Shown here one piece after another: positions 8,909 through 63,892 of a stretch of DNA of 64,000 nucleotides. The notes beneath the pieces were generated by a model. It saw nothing but the letters and a program-made list of their open reading frames with translations, had not been told where the DNA came from and searched no databases. This stretch comes from a virus. Its lineage: Duplodnaviria; Heunggongvirae; Uroviricota; Caudoviricetes. The stretch lies in the IMG/VR virus record IMGVR_UViG_2695420859_000012, one strand, 5' to 3'. The position numbers were made by a program, and so were the translations under genes. Position 1 is the first letter of the stretch; every line of letters begins with the position of its first letter.

Positions 8909-8956
8909 TTCTAAGACTCACTAAACAAATTGTTTTCTTATCTTATAAATTAATTC

Positions 8957-14940: not shown

Positions 14941-15038
14941 GGCTAATCCTTTGTTATGAAAACAAATTATTTACTAGTGTGTTTAATGTAGCACTGCGCG
15001 AATAGGGAACTAAGCCATTCGCGCAGGGAGAAGAGGGG

Positions 15039-16987: not shown

Positions 16988-17085
16988 ATGACAATCACCG
17001 AGTTACGCCGATGCACTGTATAAGTAAACAGTATATTAGGCATAGATTCTTATAGGATCAAGAGTAAAAGTAACTCATTTTCAGT

Positions 17086-17118
17086 AATGATTCCATACAT
17101 AGTAGGTATGGAATCATT
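17086..17118. other. Candidate recombination core site: 13-bp inverted repeats flanking a 7-bp spacer
   Basis: AATGATTCCATAC (17086-17098) / ATAGTAG / GTATGGAATCATT (17106-17118); arms are exact reverse complements; 130 bp upstream of the recombinase start. Confidence 0.45.
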
Positions 17119-17237
17119 GTAGGCCTTTTTTATAAAATCTGTGATTCTTCTCAGGATAAATTATCTAAACTAAAAATTGTGTTTTGTGTTGGCATCTGCT
17201 TGAATAGACGCATGTTTATTCAGATATGGAATAATCA

Positions 17238-17774
17238 GTGAACAACCAAATTCATTGGGACTACCCATTCTCAGAAGAATTCGGCAGTGGGATGGTACAC
17301 AGACAATTCACTGTGGGAAGCACTATTTATGCCGTTGGGTTTGAACAAATATTGACGATGGATGATTTCACACGTAAGGGAGTTGATATCCTAAATGTAC
17401 ATCCAACATTCCGGTTTCCTCTGAGTGGTGTATGGGGAGTGATTTTTGACGAAATTGACCCTGTAGAAATGGATTTCAAAGGATTTCGGCATATCCAACA
17501 TCAAGGCTTGGCAGGTGGTCAAGTGCTTTTGAATGTTGCAAGTATAATCTTTGACCATTATACTGTTTGTAACGCAGGAGCTTATGTCTTCTCCGCCGCA
17601 GACGACCATCAGCATTTACGCAGAACTGACTTGGTAGACATTTACTGTAAGATACTAGGTCTAAATGGAAAACGTAAAAGTAGATTGTTCGCCAATGGTT
17701 TTCCTGGATGGGAGGCATACTGTGATGTACCAACAGGAGGAAGAGGCTATGTCGTCACGACTGAAAGTTATTAA
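17238..17774 (+). CDS. Hypothetical protein, weak GNAT-like motif
   Basis: 178 aa; QHQGLAGGQVLL loosely resembles GNAT motif A; plus strand in accessory island. Confidence 0.4.
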   Translation: MNNQIHWDYPFSEEFGSGMVHRQFTVGSTIYAVGFEQILTMDDFTRKGVDILNVHPTFRFPLSGVWGVIFDEIDPVEMDFKGFRHIQHQGLAGGQVLLNVASIIFDHYTVCNAGAYVFSAADDHQHLRRTDLVDIYCKILGLNGKRKSRLFANGFPGWEAYCDVPTGGRGYVVTTESY

Positions 17775-17976
17775 TTATTACCCCACCTCTGCAGAACGTT
17801 TGAGCCTTGAAATGGGCGAAAGACTACAGAAAGCTGCTGGTCAGGATTTAAAGAACAAGTTGGGTTCAGGGGAAATTAAACTGATTAACGGTAAATATGT
17901 AGGTGAAAGCCTGAAAGTTAATAGCACCTCTATGCTAAAAGCGCGGTTGCGTAAAGCGTATATCTCCGCTAAATGA
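17749..17976 (+). CDS. Small hypothetical protein, overlapping downstream partner of 17238..17774
   Basis: Re-called start ATG at 17749 behind AGGAGG (MSSRLKVINYYPTSAERL..., 75 aa); track ORF 17665..17976 starts further upstream. Confidence 0.35.
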   Translation: MSSRLKVINYYPTSAERLSLEMGERLQKAAGQDLKNKLGSGEIKLINGKYVGESLKVNSTSMLKARLRKAYISAK

Positions 17977-18005
17977 AAAGGCCTATATGGGCCTTTTCAT
18001 TTTTA
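17976..18005. terminator. Intrinsic terminator hairpin between convergent genes
   Basis: aaaaggcc-tatatg-ggcctttt followed by cattttta. Confidence 0.6.
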
Positions 18006-18248
18006 TAGTGTACTCACCAGCGCCGCAAATTCCGTATACCCCCCAATATGCTCTCCATGTATGAATATCTGAGGTATGGTATCCACTGGTTTACCAACCT
18101 GGTTGCTCAACGTTTCTTTGTTGATCCCCGCAGATGTAATATCTATATACTCATAATCACCGTAGCCATGTCCCTTTAGTTGCTTCGCCAACTCGACCGC
18201 ACGTTTGCAGTATGAGCAGTTATCTCGTCCGTAGATAGTGATCGTCAT
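18003..18248 (-). CDS. Glutaredoxin (NrdH-like redoxin)
   Basis: 81 aa with CSYC active site (MTITIYGRDNCSYCKRAVELA). Confidence 0.8.
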   Translation of the reverse strand: MTITIYGRDNCSYCKRAVELAKQLKGHGYGDYEYIDITSAGINKETLSNQVGKPVDTIPQIFIHGEHIGGYTEFAALVSTL

Positions 18249-18421
18249 AACTTAACAAATACCTTTATAAATATTGATTCGAACATATCAGACTATACTA
18301 CAAACAGATTTTTTTGATAAGTATGTAGTAACTTATTGATTGACTAGTAAACAATTGAAGTGATTACGACAATAGATTACAGTAAGGATTGCCTTGAAAT
18401 GTACATTTTATAGAGGTTTTA

Positions 18422-19330
18422 ATGATTGGTAAGTTGTCTGATTCTTTGATTGAAAATAAATACAACGAATTTAGAGAAGAAATATCTTTACTTTTTGACT
18501 ATTTAAATCAGATAAATGATACAACAAAGAAAAATATAAAACGTCTTCTTAAAGAAGTGGAGTATGCACAAAATCCAGATACTATTATTAATATTAATGA
18601 AACTATTAAGATTAAGTGTGGCACAACGTTAGCTCGCCATTTATGTTCAAACCCATATACAGGTTCAACATTAGAGATAGGTAACAGCGCCATTGATTTA
18701 GAAGAAAAGATAAGATTGTGTAATACTTTGAAAAATAAACAATATCAGTGGGTTATTACTGAAGCCTATGAGTTACTGGAAGACTATATTGAGGCAATAT
18801 ATGTCTATACTGTATGTGTTCGAAATGATTTATGGTCCTCAAGTGATTTTGGTAAGGTTGAAGATGATGAAATTGGGAAAAGGGAAGTTTATTACAGATT
18901 ATTAAAAGCAAAAAGTAACCCATCGAAAAAAATAACTAAAATTTTCAGAAATAAAATACCTGGCTTCAAAGAGATAGAAACAAACAACAAGATTGGCAAA
19001 AACTATCGCTTTAACATCAAGCTAATTGAACTACTAAGACATACAATAGTACACAATAGTGGACGATTCAATGATACAGAAAAATTTATAAATAAGGTTT
19101 TAGATGAATCTGAAATAAACGGTAAGAAAAGAGTTATTGGAGAAAGAGCTGTTAGAAGTTACATTACTAAAGTGCAAGAAGATGATATTGTGATGCTCTT
19201 AGAAAGACCATCTGAAATTTTAGGTTCTTTTGGTGGGTATTTTAACAGAGCAAAATTTTTACTAAGTGATATTTTAGAATACTCACTAATCATTAAAGAA
19301 GAACTAAAATCATATCTAGGCAATCATTAA
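18422..19330 (+). CDS. AT-rich cargo protein with HEPN-like Rx4H motif; candidate abortive-infection/defence protein
   Basis: 302 aa; LLRHTIVHNSG (R206-x4-H211); Lys/Asn/Ile-rich; AGAGG RBS; own terminator. Confidence 0.45.
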   Translation: MIGKLSDSLIENKYNEFREEISLLFDYLNQINDTTKKNIKRLLKEVEYAQNPDTIININETIKIKCGTTLARHLCSNPYTGSTLEIGNSAIDLEEKIRLCNTLKNKQYQWVITEAYELLEDYIEAIYVYTVCVRNDLWSSSDFGKVEDDEIGKREVYYRLLKAKSNPSKKITKIFRNKIPGFKEIETNNKIGKNYRFNIKLIELLRHTIVHNSGRFNDTEKFINKVLDESEINGKKRVIGERAVRSYITKVQEDDIVMLLERPSEILGSFGGYFNRAKFLLSDILEYSLIIKEELKSYLGNH

Positions 19331-19914: not shown

Positions 19915-19990
19915 TTGGTGCCGGTTAACGGACTTGAACCGCTGGCCATTCGCTTACAAAGCGACTGCTCTACCAACTGAGCTAAACCGG
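19915..19990 (-). tRNA. tRNA-Thr (anticodon UGU), CCA encoded
   Basis: Own cloverleaf: acceptor GCCGGUU/AACCGGC, anticodon loop UUUGUAA, T-loop GGTTCAAGTCC; 76 nt. Confidence 0.65.
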
Positions 19991-19994
19991 CAAT

Positions 19995-20081
19995 TTGGTG
20001 GGGAGTGATGGAGTCGAACCACCCGAGTCGCCATGACAGTAGATTTACAGTCTACACCGCTACCTCTACGGACTAACTCCC
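19995..20081 (-). tRNA. tRNA-Tyr (anticodon GUA), type II, CCA encoded
   Basis: Acceptor GGGGAGU/ACUCCCC, anticodon stem GUAGA/UCUAC with loop CUGUAAA, long variable arm. Confidence 0.7.
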
Positions 20082-20086
20082 CTAAA

Positions 20087-20161
20087 TTGGCGATGGTGGG
20101 TGGATTCGAACCACCGACCAGTTGGTTAACAGCCAACTGCTCTACCGCTGAGCTACACCAT
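20087..20161 (-). tRNA. tRNA-Asn (anticodon GUU), CCA encoded
   Basis: Acceptor GAUGGUG/CACCAUC, anticodon stem GUUGG/CCAAC with loop CUGUUAA, T-loop GGTTCGAATCC. Confidence 0.75.
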
Positions 20162-20430
20162 CAATTCAGCACTGCCAGTATTTATTACTCAACAGTGCCA
20201 ATCGCGACGGTTTAGTTTCTGCCAGGAAACGCACCGCTACTTGCACTTTTCGTTAGTGCCAGACGCTTTCGACTTCGCTCAATAGTAGAAGGCAAAATCT
20301 TTAAGTAGATGATGTTTCTGAGGACAGCACCTACTTTGTAATTTATACAATGTGATGTATGGAATCATTTGTTGTGAAAACAGGCACCAATGGCAACAGT
20401 GGTTAAACCTACACAACAATCCCGTCTTCA

Positions 20431-28897: not shown

Positions 28898-28940
28898 GTG
28901 CTTTCCTTTGTTTTTTAAACAAATTGTTTTCTAGTATTAG

Positions 28941-29681
28941 TTAATTAGATAGGGGATCAATAAACCGCCGTGCTTCTTCCAGTTCTTCTGGAAAGTGGGC
29001 GGAAATAAGGCGCTCTGGAACGATTTCCATTAGCCAGATAGCGGAGAAAATTGCGCGTATGCGCTTGCTGCGGGGGATGGTGCGTAAACGCTCCAGAATC
29101 CACTCAAAATAGCTTTCCTGGATCGGGTTGAACTGCATGTCTCCCATATGCTTAAAGCTAACTAGAGAGTCATCCAGACGGGTTGTTGCGCGTCTGGCTA
29201 ATTTCTCTTCGAATATCTCAACCAGCTCTGGCTGCCATAAATGCTGTGGGCGCGGCAGCTTGTCCCACAGCCGTCGTGCAGCTGCGGAAAGAACGGTGGA
29301 GATAAAGTAGTCGTATGAGCAGCAATAGCGGTCAGCAAACTGGCGTGCTTTCCATAGAGACGTTTTATTGGCAGTCGACAACTCCTGATAAGGCAGGCGT
29401 TTTAACCCGGTGGTGAACGGAGCTGTTTCAAAGTGTTCGCGACCGTGCGTCAGCATGATATTTGAGTACTGACGTTTGTATGCCTCCGTAAAAAGACAGG
29501 TGGCCATGAGAGGATGCATGTCGCGGTAATCAAACCACTTCGTCTCGAAGAGTTCAGCCTCGTCTTTACAGCGCGACAAACCAATGTTTTCAGCGACCCA
29601 CTTGTCCATAACAGCGGTATTCCACTCTGTCATGAAGTCGTACTGGTCGTTGTCGATGGTATCGAAAAAGATTTGGCTCAT
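28941..29681 (-). CDS. Hypothetical protein, first gene of helicase/primase operon
   Basis: Start moved to ATG at 29679-29681 (AGGTGAG RBS; track ORF starts at GTG 29690); no recognisable motifs. Confidence 0.4.
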   Translation of the reverse strand: MSQIFFDTIDNDQYDFMTEWNTAVMDKWVAENIGLSRCKDEAELFETKWFDYRDMHPLMATCLFTEAYKRQYSNIMLTHGREHFETAPFTTGLKRLPYQELSTANKTSLWKARQFADRYCCSYDYFISTVLSAAARRLWDKLPRPQHLWQPELVEIFEEKLARRATTRLDDSLVSFKHMGDMQFNPIQESYFEWILERLRTIPRSKRIRAIFSAIWLMEIVPERLISAHFPEELEEARRFIDPLSN

Positions 29682-29797
29682 GTGGCTCACCTGGTAGGTA
29701 GTTACTTACTTATCACAATGAGCGGATGATAGCGACTGGTGGCAGTTTTTGGAAGTGGAAACGGAAGGGAGTTGTTCTGGTGGTGTCTTTTAAAAGA

Positions 29798-29852
29798 CCT
29801 GCTTCCGTATATATTTAATAAGTTACTTATTATTTATATATACAGAAGCAGG
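29798..29852. repeat. 55-bp palindromic element, copy 1
   Basis: cctgcttccgtatatatttaataagttacttattatttatatatacagaagcagg; identical to 62647-62701. Confidence 0.9.
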
Positions 29853-29963
29853 CATAACTTGTCGTCTTAGACGCCCAGAAGCTCTACACTTTGAGCCTGT
29901 TAAATTGATTAAAAACTTATGTGTAAAATAGAACGCATTAGTCAGTAGCAAAGAGATGCAATA

Positions 29964-30731
29964 ATGGACGATTTATCGGTATACGCGAGATCATTGGATA
30001 AGGCTAAATACTATGTTTACTGTCTCTATGATACAGAAGACAAGATGAAAAGACCGTTTTACATAGGAAAAGGCAAATCGACTCGTTGTCTCGATCACAT
30101 CAAGTATCCCGATGACTCTCCCAAATCCATGCGGATCAAAGAACTTTTGGCTAATAAAAAATTAGGCATAGATATACTTCGTCATGGTATGGATGAAACC
30201 ACAGCCAAACTTGTTGAGGCGACATGCATCGACCTTATGGGGGTCGGAGAGCTTACGAATAAGGTACGAGGAAGTGGTTCCATGATGGGCAGAATATCAC
30301 TGGACGCCTACCATCACTTAGTGCTGCAAGAGGAAACTGAAATTGCTCCTGAGCACGCCGGTCTTGCCTTCCTGCTAAACAGCACCTACAAGTCAGGAAT
30401 GTCCGCTCTGGCATTATATGAGGCTACGCGTGGCGTATGGGCAAAGGTTCCAAGAGACGAGAATCTCAAATATGCCTACGCTACATATGGTGGGCTGATA
30501 ATGGAAGTTTATCAGATTGAATGCTGGGTCAAAGCCGGTTCTCAGCAGTACTTTACAAGGGATATAGCTCTTGGCCCCGACACAAAACGTTATGAATTTG
30601 TTGGCAGAATAGCCGATGAGCATATTAGAAAACTGTATGTAGGCAAATTAATCAAGAAGCCACCAAGCTACGGTAGCCCTTTTGTGAAGGTTGGGGTGGT
30701 TAGGACTGAACATAGTGTTAGCGCGGCATAA
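29964..30731 (+). CDS. GIY-YIG nuclease-domain protein (possible free-standing homing endonuclease or cargo nuclease)
   Basis: N-terminal YYVYCLYD...PFYIGKGKSTR; about 150-aa unknown C-terminal region. Confidence 0.6.
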   Translation: MDDLSVYARSLDKAKYYVYCLYDTEDKMKRPFYIGKGKSTRCLDHIKYPDDSPKSMRIKELLANKKLGIDILRHGMDETTAKLVEATCIDLMGVGELTNKVRGSGSMMGRISLDAYHHLVLQEETEIAPEHAGLAFLLNSTYKSGMSALALYEATRGVWAKVPRDENLKYAYATYGGLIMEVYQIECWVKAGSQQYFTRDIALGPDTKRYEFVGRIADEHIRKLYVGKLIKKPPSYGSPFVKVGVVRTEHSVSAA

Positions 30732-31811: not shown

Positions 31812-31959
31812 TGGAGAGTTCCCTTTGCGTATATAATTATCGTCTGAAACAACTTGTTTTCTTATATGTGATATAGCCTAAATGCCTACGGCTGTGGTGT
31901 AAAGGTTAAATGGTAGGTGCTGCCTTAGAATTTTTAGGCGAGAATCAATGGCTGTTAAC

Positions 31960-33332: not shown

Positions 33333-33560
33333 TCAGTTCAGGTGCCCCCACTCACACAACCTTTCACCTATCGTATTGTGGATAAGCAACTGTCGCTCCG
33401 TTTCCTCAGTCATAAAATCCTCTCTACTCACATAAATAGGATTTGCAGCATCGCAGAATAGCACGCCTGGAGCCTGCGTCTTAATCACGCACCCATTTAT
33501 CAAACAGCTCGCGATGAACACCAGAGGCATCTTTTTGCCGCACTTCATTAACCGTTTCAT
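33333..33560 (-). CDS. Outer-membrane spanin (Rz1-like lipoprotein), overlapping the i-spanin gene
   Basis: Frame overlapping 33481..33732; internal start MKRLMKCGKKMPLVFIASC with lipobox IASC; start choice approximate. Confidence 0.45.
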   Translation of the reverse strand: MKRLMKCGKKMPLVFIASCLINGCVIKTQAPGVLFCDAANPIYVSREDFMTEETERQLLIHNTIGERLCEWGHLN

Positions 33561-35085: not shown

Positions 35086-35694
35086 TCAGTTATACAGATT
35101 TCTATTTATTACCGGTACTCTGCCATTTACGCTAAAACTATGGCCGCCATTAAGTTGGTTTACGAATATCGAGCTAACAGTATTTCCATATGCCGCATAT
35201 CCATAAACCATTGTCATGGCTCCGCCCGGTACTGGAACAGCGAACACATTCGCATATGTTGGGATTATCGCTGGTGGGTAATCAAAAACATGCCCTCCAG
35301 AGCTGTTCCACTCCGTATTATTAAGAAAGGTAAATGAAAGTGGGATATTTGCCGTATTATAGATTTCCTCCCCTTGTGCATTGAAAAAACTCATGCCCCA
35401 AGTTTCTTTTTTGGCTATACCTTTCGAAAATACGTATATCGTGGCACTAGAGTCGCTACCCTGACCTCCGAAACTGTAAATCACCTGGTTGTTACGCACT
35501 ATTCTGTTGGCTATTAATGAAACAGCTTTCGAATAGGCAACAAAAATCATCGGTGAACGATCTGGAGATATTTGGGTGTTAAACTCTGTCCCGCCGGACA
35601 AAGAAACAACCTGCTTTCTCTGAAAAACGATAGGAGACAAAGAAGGAGACATCCAGACCTTCCCGTCAGATCGATATATCTTGCTTCCGTACAT
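35086..35694 (-). CDS. Hypothetical tail-fibre-associated protein
   Basis: 202 aa; translationally coupled to upstream ORF (TAATG); Gly/Ser/Asn-rich. Confidence 0.4.
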   Translation of the reverse strand: MYGSKIYRSDGKVWMSPSLSPIVFQRKQVVSLSGGTEFNTQISPDRSPMIFVAYSKAVSLIANRIVRNNQVIYSFGGQGSDSSATIYVFSKGIAKKETWGMSFFNAQGEEIYNTANIPLSFTFLNNTEWNSSGGHVFDYPPAIIPTYANVFAVPVPGGAMTMVYGYAAYGNTVSSIFVNQLNGGHSFSVNGRVPVINRNLYN

Positions 35695-59039: not shown

Positions 59040-60614
59040 TCACTCGTTCTCTTGAGTAGATGAGTCCCCATTCCCTCGGGGTTGATCTTGCCCGCTTTCT
59101 TGGGCTGCACCACGATCATAAGTAAGTACTGACTTATTTTCAAGGGTATTTAGATCATTTTTTGGCGGAAAATTCAAGAGATCTTTATCAAATTCCTTTT
59201 TCATCGCCTCAGTAATGTTCGGGAAAATCTTCTCAATAAGCATTTCCATCTGGTGACGACGTACAGAGTCCGGTGCCTGAAGTAATGACAGTTTCTCGGC
59301 AACAGAAAATTCATCTGTAAGGCCACGAATATCGAAACTTTCTGGATACGCAATTAAAGAGTGGTCTTCGTCCAGATCTACCCCCATCCATTTCGCAACC
59401 AGTAGCATGATTTGGCGTTCAGCCCTTTCCAGACGCTCTGCTTTTGTGACAAGCAAGCTATTTACACGCTGGAAGTCATACATTTTTGCGGCACCAGATG
59501 AGTTATCAATTCCCTGTGCGTTGTCCTGCTTCGTTCGCTCACCAGCGACACCAACTGAATGGTAGATTTCGTTAATCACCGTCTTAATCGTAGTGATGAT
59601 CATCTGAGCTTGTTTCGGGTCTGGTGACAAATAAAACGGCTGGTTTCCACCTTCAGAATCGTAGGTGAAGACTCGCTTTGTGCCCATTTCAAGCACTTTA
59701 GTGTGGTTTTCATCACCAGGTAAAAGCGACTGTACCGGTATAGCCAACTGGCTAAATGTCTGATCCTGAATAATGGCATCAAGGTTTGACAGATAGTTTG
59801 CAACCGCACGATCAAGATAAGCGATATCATCGATCAACGATGGGCTGAAATACGGTGATTCACTTTCTCCAATACAATCAACAGGAAACACAGGAACTAC
59901 GCTGAGATTATGCTCACCGCTATCCTCTAAAATAACTTTTGCCTGACGGCGACCTGCTCCACCAGCGCCCTTCTTCACTTCCTCACGGAACAGATACCAC
60001 TCGTTTTGTGTCCACAGACGATAACGTTGGTATTCCTGACCTGTAGAAGTAAAAGGATCTGCATCATCACGAGCGACTTCCACAATTAACGCCCACAACA
60101 TATTCCCGTCGTCGTCCCATGCCACATCCAGCATTTGCTGAGGTGAAATCCAGTAGGCGTAGGCGCGAGCATCTTTCTTTTTCTCGTCAGCTACTGACTC
60201 AACATCACCACTCATCGTGCTATCGACAACAACCCATATGCGACCGTAAATAGACGACTGCAAATCAATAGCGGCCATAAATGAGTCAATAGAGGCATTC
60301 TGGCGAGTCGCACGTTTCCAGAAATTGCGGATCTGCTCTGGTGCCTCTTCGATATTTCTATGAATGTCTTCTTTAAAGAGATATTTGTTGATGAGGTTTA
60401 CCACCTCACGAGTGTGGTTGAAGCGATAAGCACGCTCAACTCGCTCCTTAAACTCCTGATCTCCCTCTTTAAAGTAACGAAAGATATTGTCTGTAAACCA
60501 ACCACGCCCGCCAGCGTAAGTGCTGGCGAGGAAGTCCCAATGTTCTTTTTTCTTTTCGTATTCCGGGTGGCGTCGCGCCACCAGATCCTTAATTTGTTTG
60601 TCGTTCAATTCCAT
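59040..60614 (-). CDS. Portal protein
   Basis: 524 aa directly downstream of large terminase. Confidence 0.7.
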   Translation of the reverse strand: MELNDKQIKDLVARRHPEYEKKKEHWDFLASTYAGGRGWFTDNIFRYFKEGDQEFKERVERAYRFNHTREVVNLINKYLFKEDIHRNIEEAPEQIRNFWKRATRQNASIDSFMAAIDLQSSIYGRIWVVVDSTMSGDVESVADEKKKDARAYAYWISPQQMLDVAWDDDGNMLWALIVEVARDDADPFTSTGQEYQRYRLWTQNEWYLFREEVKKGAGGAGRRQAKVILEDSGEHNLSVVPVFPVDCIGESESPYFSPSLIDDIAYLDRAVANYLSNLDAIIQDQTFSQLAIPVQSLLPGDENHTKVLEMGTKRVFTYDSEGGNQPFYLSPDPKQAQMIITTIKTVINEIYHSVGVAGERTKQDNAQGIDNSSGAAKMYDFQRVNSLLVTKAERLERAERQIMLLVAKWMGVDLDEDHSLIAYPESFDIRGLTDEFSVAEKLSLLQAPDSVRRHQMEMLIEKIFPNITEAMKKEFDKDLLNFPPKNDLNTLENKSVLTYDRGAAQESGQDQPRGNGDSSTQENE

Positions 60615-60640: not shown

Positions 60641-61897
60641 CTATCGAGAACCACCAAGAATAACACGGTTTTTGACTGGATACCTACGATGTACTGGATA
60701 GCCCAATGCGTCTGCACTATGCTCAATGCCACCTGTCTTATCCATATCTCGTGTTCCAGGCTTGTAGATGACTTTTTCCAGTGAATCAATCAAATGCTTG
60801 CACTTCGGATCGATATACAACCGGATATCTCCAGATGCGGTCATCAGCATTCGGTTAACAGCATTAACACGATCCGCAATTGGCGGGTGCTTTTTCGAAT
60901 AATCGACACGTAAGAATCCCTTCTCTTTGAATATGTCGACGTCAGACTCCCCGCGAGCATGTTGGCGATAAGCACCTGCCGGATCTGGAAATACCGTTAT
61001 CTGTGATTTCCAGCGCCAGAAGCGTCTCTCAAGCTCATCACAAACCTCTGCCGTGTTAGAGGAAAAGAGCACCAATTCATCAATTGCCCATAGCTCACCA
61101 TTTGGCTGAGGTTGCAAAATTACTGAAGACATCGGGTCAATGTTGAAGTCCTGCCCTACCCATATAGGCAACCGAGGGTTGAACTGAAGCGGTTTTACAT
61201 GCACGTTACGATCGAACGGGTAGTAAACGCGCCCGGACATGTTCTCAAAGCTCGCCAGGTACTCCTGAGCGAACGATTTCGGGTCCATATCGTTCTTAGC
61301 AGCTTCAATTTCCGCCGTAGGCACAAACGGAGAATCGGCAGTTACAAACTGCCAGCTCTTCCACTGTCCCTTTCTTTGCAGCTCTACGTTCTGGCCTATA
61401 GTCCACAGTTTGTGAAATTCCGAGAAACCTTTTGGCGTACCAATGATAAGTGCACCGCCGCGTGTCGATGAAAGAGTAGGTCGTAACACCTTGTACCAGG
61501 TGTCAGCCTTCATATCCTGAAATTCATCAAGCACTACAAAATGCAACGCTACGCCGCGCAGAGTGTCAGGCTTATCAGCACCTTTGAGGGCGATCTCCGA
61601 ACCGTTCTTCAACACGATTGTCATCGTGGTGTCGTTCTTTTTCCTAACCCACTTACGAGGCAGAACTTCCTGTAGATCGTCCCACAAAATCTGGCGAGCC
61701 ATCTGGTAAGTAGGAGCGACATACCAGACCCTTTGCTTTTTTTCCTTTGCCGCCGCACGAATAATAGTGGAGATCGACAACCGGGATTTTCCCCAGCGTC
61801 GACCAGCACAAACAACTTTAAATCGATGCGGAGACTGGAAGACTTTCATCTGTCCAGAATGCAGTTGCACAAGACTGAGCGAGGACGGGATTGCCAT
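60641..61897 (-). CDS. Terminase large subunit
   Basis: Walker A VVCAGRRWGKS, Walker B VVLDEF; nuclease-region acidic residues. Confidence 0.8.
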   Translation of the reverse strand: MAIPSSLSLVQLHSGQMKVFQSPHRFKVVCAGRRWGKSRLSISTIIRAAAKEKKQRVWYVAPTYQMARQILWDDLQEVLPRKWVRKKNDTTMTIVLKNGSEIALKGADKPDTLRGVALHFVVLDEFQDMKADTWYKVLRPTLSSTRGGALIIGTPKGFSEFHKLWTIGQNVELQRKGQWKSWQFVTADSPFVPTAEIEAAKNDMDPKSFAQEYLASFENMSGRVYYPFDRNVHVKPLQFNPRLPIWVGQDFNIDPMSSVILQPQPNGELWAIDELVLFSSNTAEVCDELERRFWRWKSQITVFPDPAGAYRQHARGESDVDIFKEKGFLRVDYSKKHPPIADRVNAVNRMLMTASGDIRLYIDPKCKHLIDSLEKVIYKPGTRDMDKTGGIEHSADALGYPVHRRYPVKNRVILGGSR

Positions 61898-62529
61898 TAT
61901 TCGTCCTCCCCTTCACTTCCATCATCTGTCGCATCAAATTCGCTTAGAGCTTCTTCTTCCAACGTCTCAAGCAATTCGTCATCGATGATTTCAGGCTCGT
62001 CGTCTTCCTGACGTAATTTCGCCACCTGGGAAGGCGTAAGCTCACCAAATACCAGGTTCGGAATTTCTTCCTCGTCATTTTCCGCATGATCCATGCCCAA
62101 TGCTTTGGACGAAACTTCAAAGCATTTTGCAAGGGTATTACTGGCTCTCTGTAAGCTCTTGAGAGAATCCTCAATCGCCCCTAAAGGCTTACCCTCACGT
62201 TTGGCCGTAGTGACTTCGACCATCACCATCTGCCCCAACGCATACGCCCAGCCGTCATAACGTGTACGACGTTCTTCTATCTTTTCCGCACGGGCTTTAG
62301 CGCGAAGCTCTGCGTCAGATTTAAGAGACTCACGAACCATCTTCCCAACAGAGTCCGCGCCTTTCTCTAATCCTCGCTTTTTGAAATGTCTGGAGAGTGT
62401 TTCACGACGAATGCCGTACTCTTCCTCCAGCTTTGAGAGTGTATATTCGCCTGACGTCCATTTGGCTTCAGCTTCGGCCCACTCCGCTGGTGTCAGGCGA
62501 GTTTTTACCTCGTCTTTTTCGACCGTCAT
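61897..62529 (-). CDS. Terminase small subunit
   Basis: 210 aa upstream of TerL with ATGA coupling; HTH-like N-terminus; acidic C-terminus. Confidence 0.6.
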   Translation of the reverse strand: MTVEKDEVKTRLTPAEWAEAEAKWTSGEYTLSKLEEEYGIRRETLSRHFKKRGLEKGADSVGKMVRESLKSDAELRAKARAEKIEERRTRYDGWAYALGQMVMVEVTTAKREGKPLGAIEDSLKSLQRASNTLAKCFEVSSKALGMDHAENDEEEIPNLVFGELTPSQVAKLRQEDDEPEIIDDELLETLEEEALSEFDATDDGSEGEDE

Positions 62530-62646
62530 AGATCCCTCTAAAACACACAGAGCGCGTCCATGCGCTCTAAAACAACTTGTTTACTGCATTTTCTAACCAA
62601 CTTGTTTTCTGGGTTGTTTAATTAGGTCTGGGCATGTCTTATTAAG

Positions 62647-62701
62647 CCTGCTTCCGTATATATTTAATAAGTTACTTATTATTTATATATACAGAAGCAG
62701 G
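62647..62701. repeat. 55-bp palindromic element, copy 2
   Basis: Identical to 29798-29852; between terS start and the 88-aa gene. Confidence 0.9.
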
Positions 62702-62725
62702 TCTTTAAATAAGCTCCCAGACCGA

Positions 62726-62992
62726 TTACATCACCAGTAACTTCGCTTTGGCTCGACCTAAAGTGGTTAACCCAAGAGTTCGGCGGTGATAGCGATTGTC
62801 ACTGCGTTGGCGCGTATGCCCTTTCTCCACAAGCCCCTTTTTTATCAGAGCGCGAATTGAGAACTGGATACTTTGCTTGGTTGTCTTGTACGGCAAAACT
62901 TCAAGCAATTCGTCCAGATCAAGTAGATAACCTCGCTCATAACCGAGATTGAGCGTTTTGATGATGTCCTTTTGTTTATCGGTTAACGTCAT
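62726..62992 (-). CDS. Small basic protein, possible DNA-binding regulator
   Basis: 88 aa, Lys/Arg-rich C-terminus. Confidence 0.4.
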   Translation of the reverse strand: MTLTDKQKDIIKTLNLGYERGYLLDLDELLEVLPYKTTKQSIQFSIRALIKKGLVEKGHTRQRSDNRYHRRTLGLTTLGRAKAKLLVM

Positions 62993-63001
62993 GGCAAATC
63001 C

Positions 63002-63892
63002 TTATGCCGGTAAAGCAATTTCTAACGGTTTATCCAAAGGTTGTTTGTCGAATGCCAGCAGTGGCAGCGTGTCAGGCAGTCGACGACCAAAGTCAGGGTT
63101 TCGATACACCCCATACAACGGAGACGTAAAGCTCAGGTTGTGAATGTCCTTGAGCAACTTCACAATGCTGGCCTCGTCCACCAGACTGTCGGCAATGTCC
63201 TGAATCGTCGTGCCACGATTCCGCCCAGCTTTTGCCAGGGAACTGTTCTTGTGGTAGTCCGCCACCAGATCACGCAGTGCACGGCGACGACGAGACTCGC
63301 TCATTGCGAACAACTCTTTGACGATCGCCTCGTTATCACCCGGGTCGGAACGGAAATGGCGCTGGAATACACGCAGTGCACTTTCATAGCTCTTCGGTCG
63401 CTCAGGGCGGATGAACTTAAACCCTGCTTTCATGGCGAAGGGATTGTATTTGCTCATCGAGGACTGGATCTCAATGATTGGCCGGTCATGCATCCTGCTA
63501 ACCAGGTTAATCATTCGATAAGAGACGCCTACGCCACGATACTGAGTATCCACAACTGAGCGACTGATCACCGCAAAGTTGTTATTCACGTACCGACCCC
63601 AGTACTGGTTAGCCACGGTGGTATTAGTGGTTGGTTTCAACTTAGGAAACATGCGGTGGCGAGGTGCCAACAGTAGTTTCGGGTAAGCCATAACCACGAC
63701 GCCCACCAGACGGTCATCAAGTTCGCAGCGATAGTAAGTTGGCGCGAAAGGTTTGCCGTCTGTTTTGTAGTGAAGCGACTTAAGAGCGTGCCAGTCCTCT
63801 ACAGTTCCCTTTGTAACAGTCATTCGCTCCAGAAAGTCCAGATGACGCGGAAACTCTTCAGGGCGGTAGCGTTTAATGATGATGTCCGTCAT
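63002..63892 (-). CDS. Hypothetical protein (weak GNAT-like motif)
   Basis: 296 aa; YRGVGVSYRMINL resembles acetyltransferase motif A. Confidence 0.35.
   Translation of the reverse strand: MTDIIIKRYRPEEFPRHLDFLERMTVTKGTVEDWHALKSLHYKTDGKPFAPTYYRCELDDRLVGVVVMAYPKLLLAPRHRMFPKLKPTTNTTVANQYWGRYVNNNFAVISRSVVDTQYRGVGVSYRMINLVSRMHDRPIIEIQSSMSKYNPFAMKAGFKFIRPERPKSYESALRVFQRHFRSDPGDNEAIVKELFAMSESRRRRALRDLVADYHKNSSLAKAGRNRGTTIQDIADSLVDEASIVKLLKDIHNLSFTSPLYGVYRNPDFGRRLPDTLPLLAFDKQPLDKPLEIALPA

Follow-up and report, generated by a model that had tools for sequence, protein, structure and literature searches.

A 55-bp palindrome upstream of terS in an SSU5-like phage-plasmid is part of a three-copy cassette and more likely an operon-boundary or regulatory element than a packaging signal

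The DNA analyzed here, called the window throughout, is a stretch of 64,000 nucleotides which by sequence comparison represents an SSU5-like phage-plasmid of E. coli. It shares 98-99% identity with 'Escherichia phage CMS-2020a', PhiR41_1 and Cyrano, and about 80% identity with Salmonella phage SSU5 and with Klebsiella phage-plasmids. SSU5-like phage-plasmids are common in Enterobacteriaceae and are known carriers of resistance genes (PMC9600943); the terS leader described below matches 834 PLSDB plasmids. Every gene in the region around terS lies on the minus strand, the putative terS being the first gene of a terS-terL-portal block and being preceded by a gene of 88 aa (Table 1). Since both terS and the 88-aa gene are on the minus strand, the leader is read from 62725 down to 62530 and its elements are read as reverse complements. 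As RNA, this minus-strand leader is predicted to fold with -75.9 kcal/mol (z = -8.3).

The original prediction described the terS leader as unusually rich in structured elements and proposed a regulated late or packaging promoter or a pac-proximal region. The elements themselves were recovered in our analysis, namely a second copy of a 55-bp palindrome at 62647-62701 which exactly duplicates the one at 29798-29852, two dyads of which the second has one mismatch, a direct repeat, and a hairpin with the arms AGAGCGC and GCGCTCT (62549-62568) whose loop has 6 nt (GTCCAT) and not 7 as described. In the leader, phylogenetic footprints coincide with the arms of the palindrome, with the proximal dyad, with the small hairpin and with the U-tract/SD, so that a dense and conserved cis-regulatory leader directly upstream of the terS-terL-portal operon is what stands of the proposal. 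The view that these elements are specific for terS or for packaging was not supported, because the palindrome is found in three paralogous cassettes, the dyad is found genome-wide at gene starts, and a scan of both palindrome regions, terS leader included, gave no match to the sigma-70 consensus promoter.

The protein encoded by the 88-aa gene was modelled as a minimal MarR-like winged helix (AlphaFold pLDDT 81), and Foldseek searches with this model returned wHTH proteins of the MepR/MarR/AdcR type (TM 0.70-0.77, E about 1e-4). By this predicted fold the protein is a candidate trans factor for the leader elements. PDB sequence searches with TerS, the 88-aa protein and the 246-aa protein of the DnaB/primase operon gave no significant match.

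Table 1. Features of the window and of the SSU5 record. Positions are those of the window unless SSU5 is named; identity is the mean pairwise identity of the terS leader among ten lineage representatives.
Feature	Position	Strand	Basis or context	Identity
Portal	59040-60614	-	Gene of the terS-terL-portal block	
terL	60641-61897	-	Terminase_6N protein; overlapped by terS	
Putative terS, 210 aa, DNA-binding region N-terminal	61897-62529	-	ORF; PHROG 867 'DNA binding domain'; annotated in Cyrano as terminase small subunit	
U-rich tract, sense UGUGUUUUAG	62538-62547	-	After the hairpin, into SD GAGGGA (62533-62538) and ATG (62527-62529)	
U-tract, SD and ATG together				0.95
Direct repeat, sense TGTTTTAGAG, plus strand CTCTAAAACA	62536-62545 and 62565-62574 (span 62536-62574)	-	Brackets the hairpin	
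Small leader RNA hairpin, sense UAGAGCGC-AUGGAC-GCGCUCUG	62548-62569	-	Terminator-like prediction	0.86
Proximal dyad, plus strand AAACAACTTGTTT, sense AAACAAGTTGTTT	62570-62582	-	Genome-wide dyad family beside start codons	0.96
Distal dyad, plus strand AACCAACTTGTTT (one mismatch), sense AAACAAGTTGGTT	62595-62607	-	Dyad family	
Nested extended palindrome round site A	62625-62723	.	Inverted repeat, 99 bp, 39-nt arms, 72%	
Site A, 55-bp imperfect palindrome, terS-proximal	62647-62701	.	Exact duplicate of 29798-29852	
Right arm of palindrome				0.98
Left arm of palindrome				0.91
Palindrome centre				0.87
Flanking spacers				0.5-0.6
88-aa gene	62726-62992	-	ORF; PHROG 900, without Pfam match; stop codon 24 nt ahead of palindrome	
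Site B, identical second copy	29798-29852	.	116 nt upstream of the 246-aa gene heading the DnaB-helicase/primase operon	
Dyad	28917-28929	-	19 nt upstream of DnaB-like helicase start	
Dyad	31847-31859		36 nt before parA	
Further dyads	8923-8935 and 14960-14972		Same AAACAANTTGTTT family	
SSU5 site A	Across ends of linear record		Upstream of terS	
SSU5 site B	33458-33513		Upstream of SSU5_038, DnaB, primase	
SSU5 site C	78304-78360		Between methyltransferase gene and SSU5_089	

The 55-mer CCTGCTTCCGTATATATTTAATAAGTTACTTATTATTTATATATACAGAAGCAGG occurs exactly twice in the window, and no match was obtained in any of 100 shuffles. Sites A and B are the largest palindromes of the window and the identity between them ends at the edges of the element. 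The outer 17 nt of the arms are 94% complementary and the inner 16 nt 88% complementary, the half-site consensus is CCTGCTTCYGTATATAT, and the centre is made of A/T only; the total length ranges over 53-57 bp across copies. Around the 55-mer of site A the outer arms GGTCTGGG (62625-62632) and CCCAGACC (62716-62723), which on the sense strand read GTCTGGGAG ... CCCAGAC, complete the nested extended palindrome, and the same outer motif also flanks the other sites and the orthologues. For the extended palindrome, the RNA and the DNA hairpin are both predicted with z of about -8.3. In the folded sense RNA of the terS leader, the hairpin consists of a lower stem of 17 bp and an upper stem of 7 bp separated by a 3x1 internal loop, with G-C or C-G at 8 of its 10 basal pairs, and the 55-mer folds with -27.7 kcal/mol.

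The window was also searched for extra copies or lone half-sites, and the sole further match (35680-35693) is the start of a coding gene. No Rfam 15 family reached its gathering score in 62350-62850, where just sub-threshold matches to generic hairpins (miRNA-precursor) were seen, and over the whole window only three tRNAs reached threshold. Several known sites were considered and rejected. The arms resemble LexA half-sites (CTGTATAT/ATATACAG), but their separation exceeds that of a LexA box by about 29 bp, and CCG/CGG stands in their place in many copies. A sigma-54 -24/-12 element in the outer arm was dropped for wrong spacing, and IHF, dif, loxP (CTTCGTATA-like) and Tus-Ter (AATAAGTA...GTAAC) sites were dropped for just partial similarity, in each case by eye.

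The palindrome is one part of a larger unit. Relatives carry three paralogous cassettes of about 210 nt. One precedes terS, one the DnaB/primase operon and one a third block, this last (site C) lying outside the window. In each, the stop codon is followed by the outer arm GTCTGGGAG, the 55-bp palindrome, the second outer arm CTCCCAGAC, a leader of about 116 nt and the ATG. All three are placed in gene orientation, start 22-27 nt past the upstream stop and end 115-118 nt before the next ATG, and with these fixed distances the cassette fills the 'terminator slot' of the usual intergenic unit of this phage, in which a terminator hairpin, a -10-like hexamer, 13 nt, the operator dyad and the RBS succeed each other. 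Sites A-C can also be aligned beyond the 55-mer, over the outer arms and some 50 nt of the leader, and the cassettes are therefore taken as paralogues. The same three contexts recurred in a pattern scan of IMG/VR.

Among complete E. coli genomes, the cassette was found at 403 places in 258 of 5426, with 1-3 in each, on plasmids only and never on a chromosome; it is not a general mobile repeat. No target-site duplications were found at the cassette edges, and the features of REP/BIME, ERIC or MITE repeats were not found. Sites A and B are homogenised within lineages: the two are the same in E. coli, and in SSU5 they have lineage-specific bases in common. Recombination between the palindromes of sites A and B was tested as the origin of a 61-kb Enterobacter plasmid of reduced size and ruled out. 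In the literature searched on SSU5 termini, palindromes and regulation we found no description of this element.

The second class of elements in the leader, the 13-bp dyad, is also widespread. The two dyads before terS form the centres of the two units (62570-62594 and 62595-62619) of a 25-bp tandem repeat; the Klebsiella relatives have a single unit, the distal one being absent. The dyad AAACAANTTGTTT has 6 matches in the window, where 0.5 are expected. SSU5 has 20 for an expectation of 0.1, and 18 of these precede an ORF start by no more than 70 nt and are on the gene strand. Almost all of the dyads lie 4-70 nt upstream of start codons. About half of the SSU5 dyads have a GATAAT-like hexamer exactly 13 nt ahead, a spacing that would put the dyad centre near transcript position +13, which is an operator-like position. 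The small early genes of SSU5 share a unit consisting of terminator hairpin, GATAAT, 13 nt, dyad and RBS, and as these GATAAT-type early cassettes mostly fail the strict consensus, their hexamers are termed only '-10-like'. At the place where the paralogous early cassettes have GATAAT, 13 nt upstream of the distal dyad, the E. coli terS leader has CCTAAT (62621-62626) and that of SSU5 has CCGGTT, so any terS promoter would be weak or activator-dependent. The AAACAANTTGTTT dyads resemble operators or leader motifs.

For the small hairpin ahead of the terS ribosome-binding site, RNAalifold gave 5 conserved pairs with 6 G·U cells compatible with the sense strand only, and a compensatory GC-to-AU change is present in 2 sequences; the sense-only G·U cells and the compensatory changes identify it as an RNA element, resembling a terminator or attenuator. 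In the SSU5 clade the hairpin is followed by UGUGUGUUUU and obtains a terminator-like score, and in the divergent KpPF25 lineage the hairpin is kept and the U-tract is absent. Since the other cassettes run directly from dyad to RBS, the hairpin looks like an insertion or duplication in a standard dyad-RBS unit, and the direct repeat which brackets it looks like the scar of this insertion.

The best-conserved non-coding bases of the leader are the palindrome arms, and they change in concert between lineages. The half-site CCTGCTTCYGTATAT is present at the heads of the three blocks and is conserved at 0.91-0.98, against 0.5-0.6 for the flanks. A relative whose neighbouring protein is 64% identical (L214) has the perfect arms CCTGCTTCTGTATA / TATACAGAAGCAGG around a non-palindromic 25-nt centre, with a T-run after them, and in another with a neighbouring protein of 59% identity (L215) both arms are altered symmetrically to CCCAT / ATGGG. 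In K. pneumoniae KpPF25 p2 all three right arms read GAGCCAGGC instead of GAAGCAGG(C/T) and the left arms lag, so that the right arm has been homogenised at the cost of pairing; at its site C the right arm alone is kept, and ordinary terminators adjoin the palindrome at sites B and C. A Morganella relative has an ordinary terminator in the corresponding slot, ATGGGAGCA..TGCTCCCAT+TTCTTTC.

Over the alignment of the palindrome, 87.5% of cells are paired, 7 pairs show double changes, and the covariation score is 0.104 versus 0.073. Transition mismatches are G·U-compatible 14 times on the sense and 15 times on the antisense strand, and position 9/47 shows all four Y/R combinations; as the G·U-compatible changes do not favour the sense strand, they do not demonstrate that selection on the palindrome acts through RNA. 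These comparisons indicate that the symmetry of the palindrome is under selection and that the right arm is under a sequence constraint exceeding the needs of pairing.

The sequence following the palindrome was compared between the three sites. Site A is followed by CUUAAUAAG, or by UAAUUAAA past the outer stem, and all E. coli and Klebsiella variants have 3-4 T among the 8 nt here; in SSU5 the outer arm of site A is succeeded by TTTT. At site B the right arm is followed on the sense (minus) strand by TCTTTTAA with 5-7 T in 8 nt, and at site C by CTGTTTTG / CTTTTT with 4-6 T in 8 nt, both in essentially all variants, and no equivalent T-run is present on the antisense side of these two sites. 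Thus, among the features of an intrinsic terminator, the stable GC-containing stem and the co-directional stop upstream are present, and the U-tract is present at sites B and C but missing at site A, which would accordingly make a poor intrinsic terminator. The predicted fold also agrees with RNase III sites of the T7 R-site type in its intercistronic double-stranded stem of some 20 bp or more, which in such sites usually contains an internal loop.

As one of three copies of a conserved spacer between gene blocks, the palindrome is more likely to be an operon-boundary or regulatory element than a packaging signal. The reading we prefer, at a rough probability of 40%, is that the palindrome acts as a hairpin at operon boundaries (as terminator, insulator or processing site) and that a phage factor in addition recognises the sequence of its arms. 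It draws on the position behind stop codons, the T-runs at sites B and C, the Morganella terminator, the units of the SSU5 early genes, and a symmetry kept with some changes on both sides. Upon transcription the nested palindrome would fold into a highly stable hairpin, about 25 bp long or, if the outer arms are included, about 40 bp, which may terminate, insulate or be processed (e.g. by RNase III), and as a result the late, replication and third blocks would be uncoupled from upstream read-through. As the arms, above all the promoter-proximal right arm, are constrained in sequence, some phage factor probably recognises them and may either regulate read-through or bind the DNA. At site A, which has no U-run, control would pass to the remaining leader, to the two putative operator dyads first and then to the small RNA hairpin with its U-tract, which may work as an attenuator directly ahead of the terS Shine-Dalgarno. 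The missing U-run at site A, the lack of a G·U strand bias and the homogenised right arms of KpPF25 speak against a boundary hairpin, as does a conservation of arm sequence far beyond what is usual for terminators.

The same observations on the arms can be explained at the level of DNA, which we consider unlikely, though it is the main rival. In that case a dimeric or tetrameric phage regulator, of which the 88-aa wHTH protein would be one candidate, would bind the 14-17-bp arms as inverted half-sites and switch the three large lytic blocks on or off together, the AT-rich centre being no more than a flexible spacer. The arms are near-invariant in paralogues and orthologues while the centre and spacers drift, L214 has perfect arms and a non-palindromic centre, and the concerted change of three right arms in KpPF25, the lone right arm at its site C and the absent G·U bias agree with a DNA site. 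The wHTH gene lies directly upstream of site A, and late activators are often encoded just upstream of terS (RinA/LtrC/ArpU, lambda Q). If the transcription start is placed by the paralogous cassettes, the palindrome would lie at about -33 to -87 of the terS leader. However, with a length of 53-57 bp the half-sites are not in constant phase, the palindrome is not accompanied by a recognisable promoter, its distance from the likely -10 elements is not the same at all sites, the T-runs and the place behind stop codons are left unexplained, and the 13-bp dyad, found at no fewer than 20 gene starts (>=20), is a better operator candidate. It is quite unlikely, in our estimate, that the palindromes are dispersed, sequence-recognised DNA elements of a kind undescribed for phage-plasmids, either hr-like lytic origins or enhancers for the three blocks bound by a phage factor, or a set in which site A is a true terminase cut with the SSU5 virion end inside and the other two are uncut paralogues. 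Another proposal is that the palindromes are lytic origins or enhancer-like elements, with inverted GC-containing boxes round an A/T-only unwinding centre of about 35 bp in three dispersed copies. The 10-bp GC-rich boxes, the A/T-only core and a strong cruciform or hairpin potential (DNA fold z = -8.3) would suit it, and site B, the only copy next to replication genes, stands directly upstream of the 246-aa/DnaB/primase module and travels with it in a reduced and in a hybrid plasmid. We hold it very unlikely, as no iterons or DnaA boxes were noticed, GC skew tracks gene orientation only, and transcription units are what the position after stops, the T-runs and the constant orientation are characteristic of.

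A packaging site is a further reading, in which site A would contain the point where terminase cuts (cos-like, or the first cut of a pac system) and the dyads would be terminase-binding repeats as in lambda cosB. Cos sites are typically located just upstream of terS. The sole hint of packaging in the data is circumstantial: the linear SSU5 record, in both accessions, ends with ...ACTTATTA and starts with AATATATACGGAAGCAGG, so that its junction (...ACTTATTA/AATATATACGG) falls inside the palindrome, 133 nt upstream of terS; by simple arithmetic, an arbitrary start inside a 55-bp element of a 103-kb genome has a chance of about 5e-4. Yet an identical 55-mer lies 32.8 kb away and each genome has three copies, the entire cassette is paralogous and so not packaging-specific, and the dyads are generic start-codon motifs recurring at parA, DnaB and at least 15 other gene starts. 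An assembly break at the palindrome would explain the SSU5 record ends equally well. The Cyrano record starts one base away from the SSU5 start, and since the Cyrano paper compares its genome to SSU5 and reports no terminus mapping, that start was probably taken over from the SSU5 record. The deposited record of PhiR41_1 is circular. No terminus mapping of SSU5 was found in the literature searched, and those IMG/VR contigs which end near terS have their ends outside the palindrome. The TerL protein (Terminase_6N) has distant relatives in both Jersey-like phages, which package by headful, and T5-like phages, which have long terminal repeats; with just distant matches of about 25% identity to these two groups, TerL phylogeny was uninformative as a guide to packaging type. 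We therefore consider a packaging site improbable. It is also conceivable that there is no dedicated function, the palindrome being selfish or maintained by gene conversion in terminator loops and serving mainly as a recombination junction between mosaic modules. An inner palindrome nested in an outer terminator-like stem, of which Morganella has the outer-type hairpin only, would agree with this, and so would the homogenised sites A and B and the homology with Cyrano and CMS-2020a SCU-175, which breaks at the edge of site B beside a GIY-YIG nuclease gene. With just three copies always in the same orthologous places, none on the chromosomes of the 5426 E. coli genomes, no terminal inverted repeats with target-site duplications, and strong purifying selection on the arms even where neighbouring proteins are only 59-64% identical, a palindrome of this kind seems most implausible.

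The palindrome and the other leader elements can be compared with known systems (terminators, T7 R-sites, lambda cos, P1/L5 sites, Q/RinA and HSV/SPP1/hr). The intrinsic terminators of coliphages and the RNase III sites of T7 are likewise long irregular hairpins after a stop and before the next cistron, in several paralogous copies, and they share a GC-rich stem base with a T-run, which the cassette has at two of its three sites. They differ in that site A is without U-run, the cassette stem of 25-40 bp is far longer than in usual terminators, and its arms are conserved beyond pairing needs, with no G·U bias and no Rfam match. A lambda-type cos (cosN with partial dyad, cosB repeats, upstream of Nu1/terS) resembles the terS leader in having a dyad-symmetric element and short repeats before terS, with the SSU5 record ending inside; it differs from an element that occurs thrice per genome, identical at two loci, and whose repeats are generic at start codons. 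The operators of P1 C1, the 'stoperators' of L5 and the start-associated sequences of cluster K are dispersed motifs like AAACAANTTGTTT, whose 20 sites in SSU5 nearly all belong to one orientation class relative to the genes, but the P1/L5 sites are asymmetric whereas AAACAANTTGTTT is a symmetric 6-N-6 dyad with two tandem copies in the terS leader. In late control by lambda Q (PR'-tR') or RinA/LtrC/ArpU there is also a small DNA-binding protein gene upstream and a terminator-like leader hairpin before the first late gene, but the 88-aa wHTH protein has no sequence or fold relation to either and no promoter was found here. HSV oriS/oriL, baculovirus hr and SPP1 oriL/oriR are, like the three sites, dispersed imperfect palindromes with an AT-rich centre and inverted boxes, one of them near replication genes; unlike these viral origins and enhancers, the cassettes are all co-oriented with transcription and stand right behind stop codons.

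Nothing published on the regulatory wiring of SSU5-like phage-plasmids was found in the literature searched. The data presented here provide a map of cis elements, in which three conserved boundary cassettes split the genome into late, replication and early/maintenance blocks, together with a putative regulon of at least 20 sites with the 13-bp dyad and an RNA attenuator-like hairpin before terS. Identical 55-bp copies can break assemblies and serve as recombination substrates, and they may explain where the SSU5 reference record was opened. The map gives direct targets for studying how induction turns on the packaging genes.

The 13-bp dyad AAACAANTTGTTT is distributed genome-wide and adjoins start codons. 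In the window six matches were found against 0.5 expected, and each of the six precedes the start of a minus-strand gene by 14-65 nt, with parA and DnaB among these genes. In the Salmonella phage SSU5, 20 copies are present. Probably the dyad serves a global phage regulator as its operator, or else it is a leader motif. Two copies fall in the leader of terS, the putative small-terminase gene, where the distal dyad sits in a 25-bp unit that is a tandem duplication (62570-62619); this unit is missing in the Klebsiella lineage (loci L042, L051-L069), and the operator count of the terS leader therefore differs by lineage.

For the 88-aa protein encoded directly upstream of this leader (62726-62992, minus strand) no Pfam family was found; its structural model is that of a minimal MarR-like winged-helix (wHTH) DNA-binding protein, and its gene is located as expected of a late regulator. 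Directly upstream of the wHTH gene, a conserved cluster carries genes of an ATPase with a fused acetyltransferase-like domain and of an ABC-type ATPase, together with ParB-like nuclease or methylase genes; this cluster and the late genes may belong to a single operon.

Coordinates of the features and of the SSU5 record ends
Feature	Position	Strand	Remark
13-bp dyad	8923-8935, 14960-14972, 28917-28929, 31847-31859		window
13-bp dyad, terS leader pair	62570-62582, 62595-62607		window
Conserved gene cluster	63002-63892 and upstream	-	directly upstream of wHTH gene and terS
GIY-YIG (LEM-3-like) nuclease gene	29964-30731	+	adjoins copy B
SSU5 record ends	L004 1-18, L005 2464-2500		approximately window 62663/62664

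The 55-bp palindrome also stands at copy B (29798-29852), ahead of the DnaB/primase operon, and homology to the close relatives Cyrano and CMS-2020a strain SCU-175 ends at the edge of this copy (query 1-556/563 of 29300-30300), hence the palindrome marks a mosaic junction. The nuclease gene adjoining it is oriented divergently from the replication operon, and in SSU5 a DUF2971 gene stands in its place.

The low-GC island of the window (about 17000-19000, GC 0.33-0.40) has a reversed GC skew and contains near-perfect palindromes at 17086-17118 and 17971-18002, of which the latter resembles a bidirectional terminator. Three clustered tRNA genes (19919-20162, minus strand) gave the sole Rfam matches at gathering score in the window.

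The linear reference record of SSU5 (NC_018843 / JQ965645) both starts and ends within the terS-proximal palindrome, and the Cyrano record OV696614 starts 1 base away from the SSU5 start. This is either a true virion terminus or an artefact of assembly or orientation which was passed on to later records.

A divergent lineage is represented by K. pneumoniae KpPF25 p2 (NZ_CP065827.1; loci L210, L212, L213), in which the right arms of the palindromes in all three cassettes (palindrome with outer arms and leader) are altered in concert to GAGCCAGGC, and at site C, the third cassette, only the right arm is left, followed by an ordinary terminator. KpPF25 is the best natural experiment for telling a constraint on sequence from a constraint on pairing.
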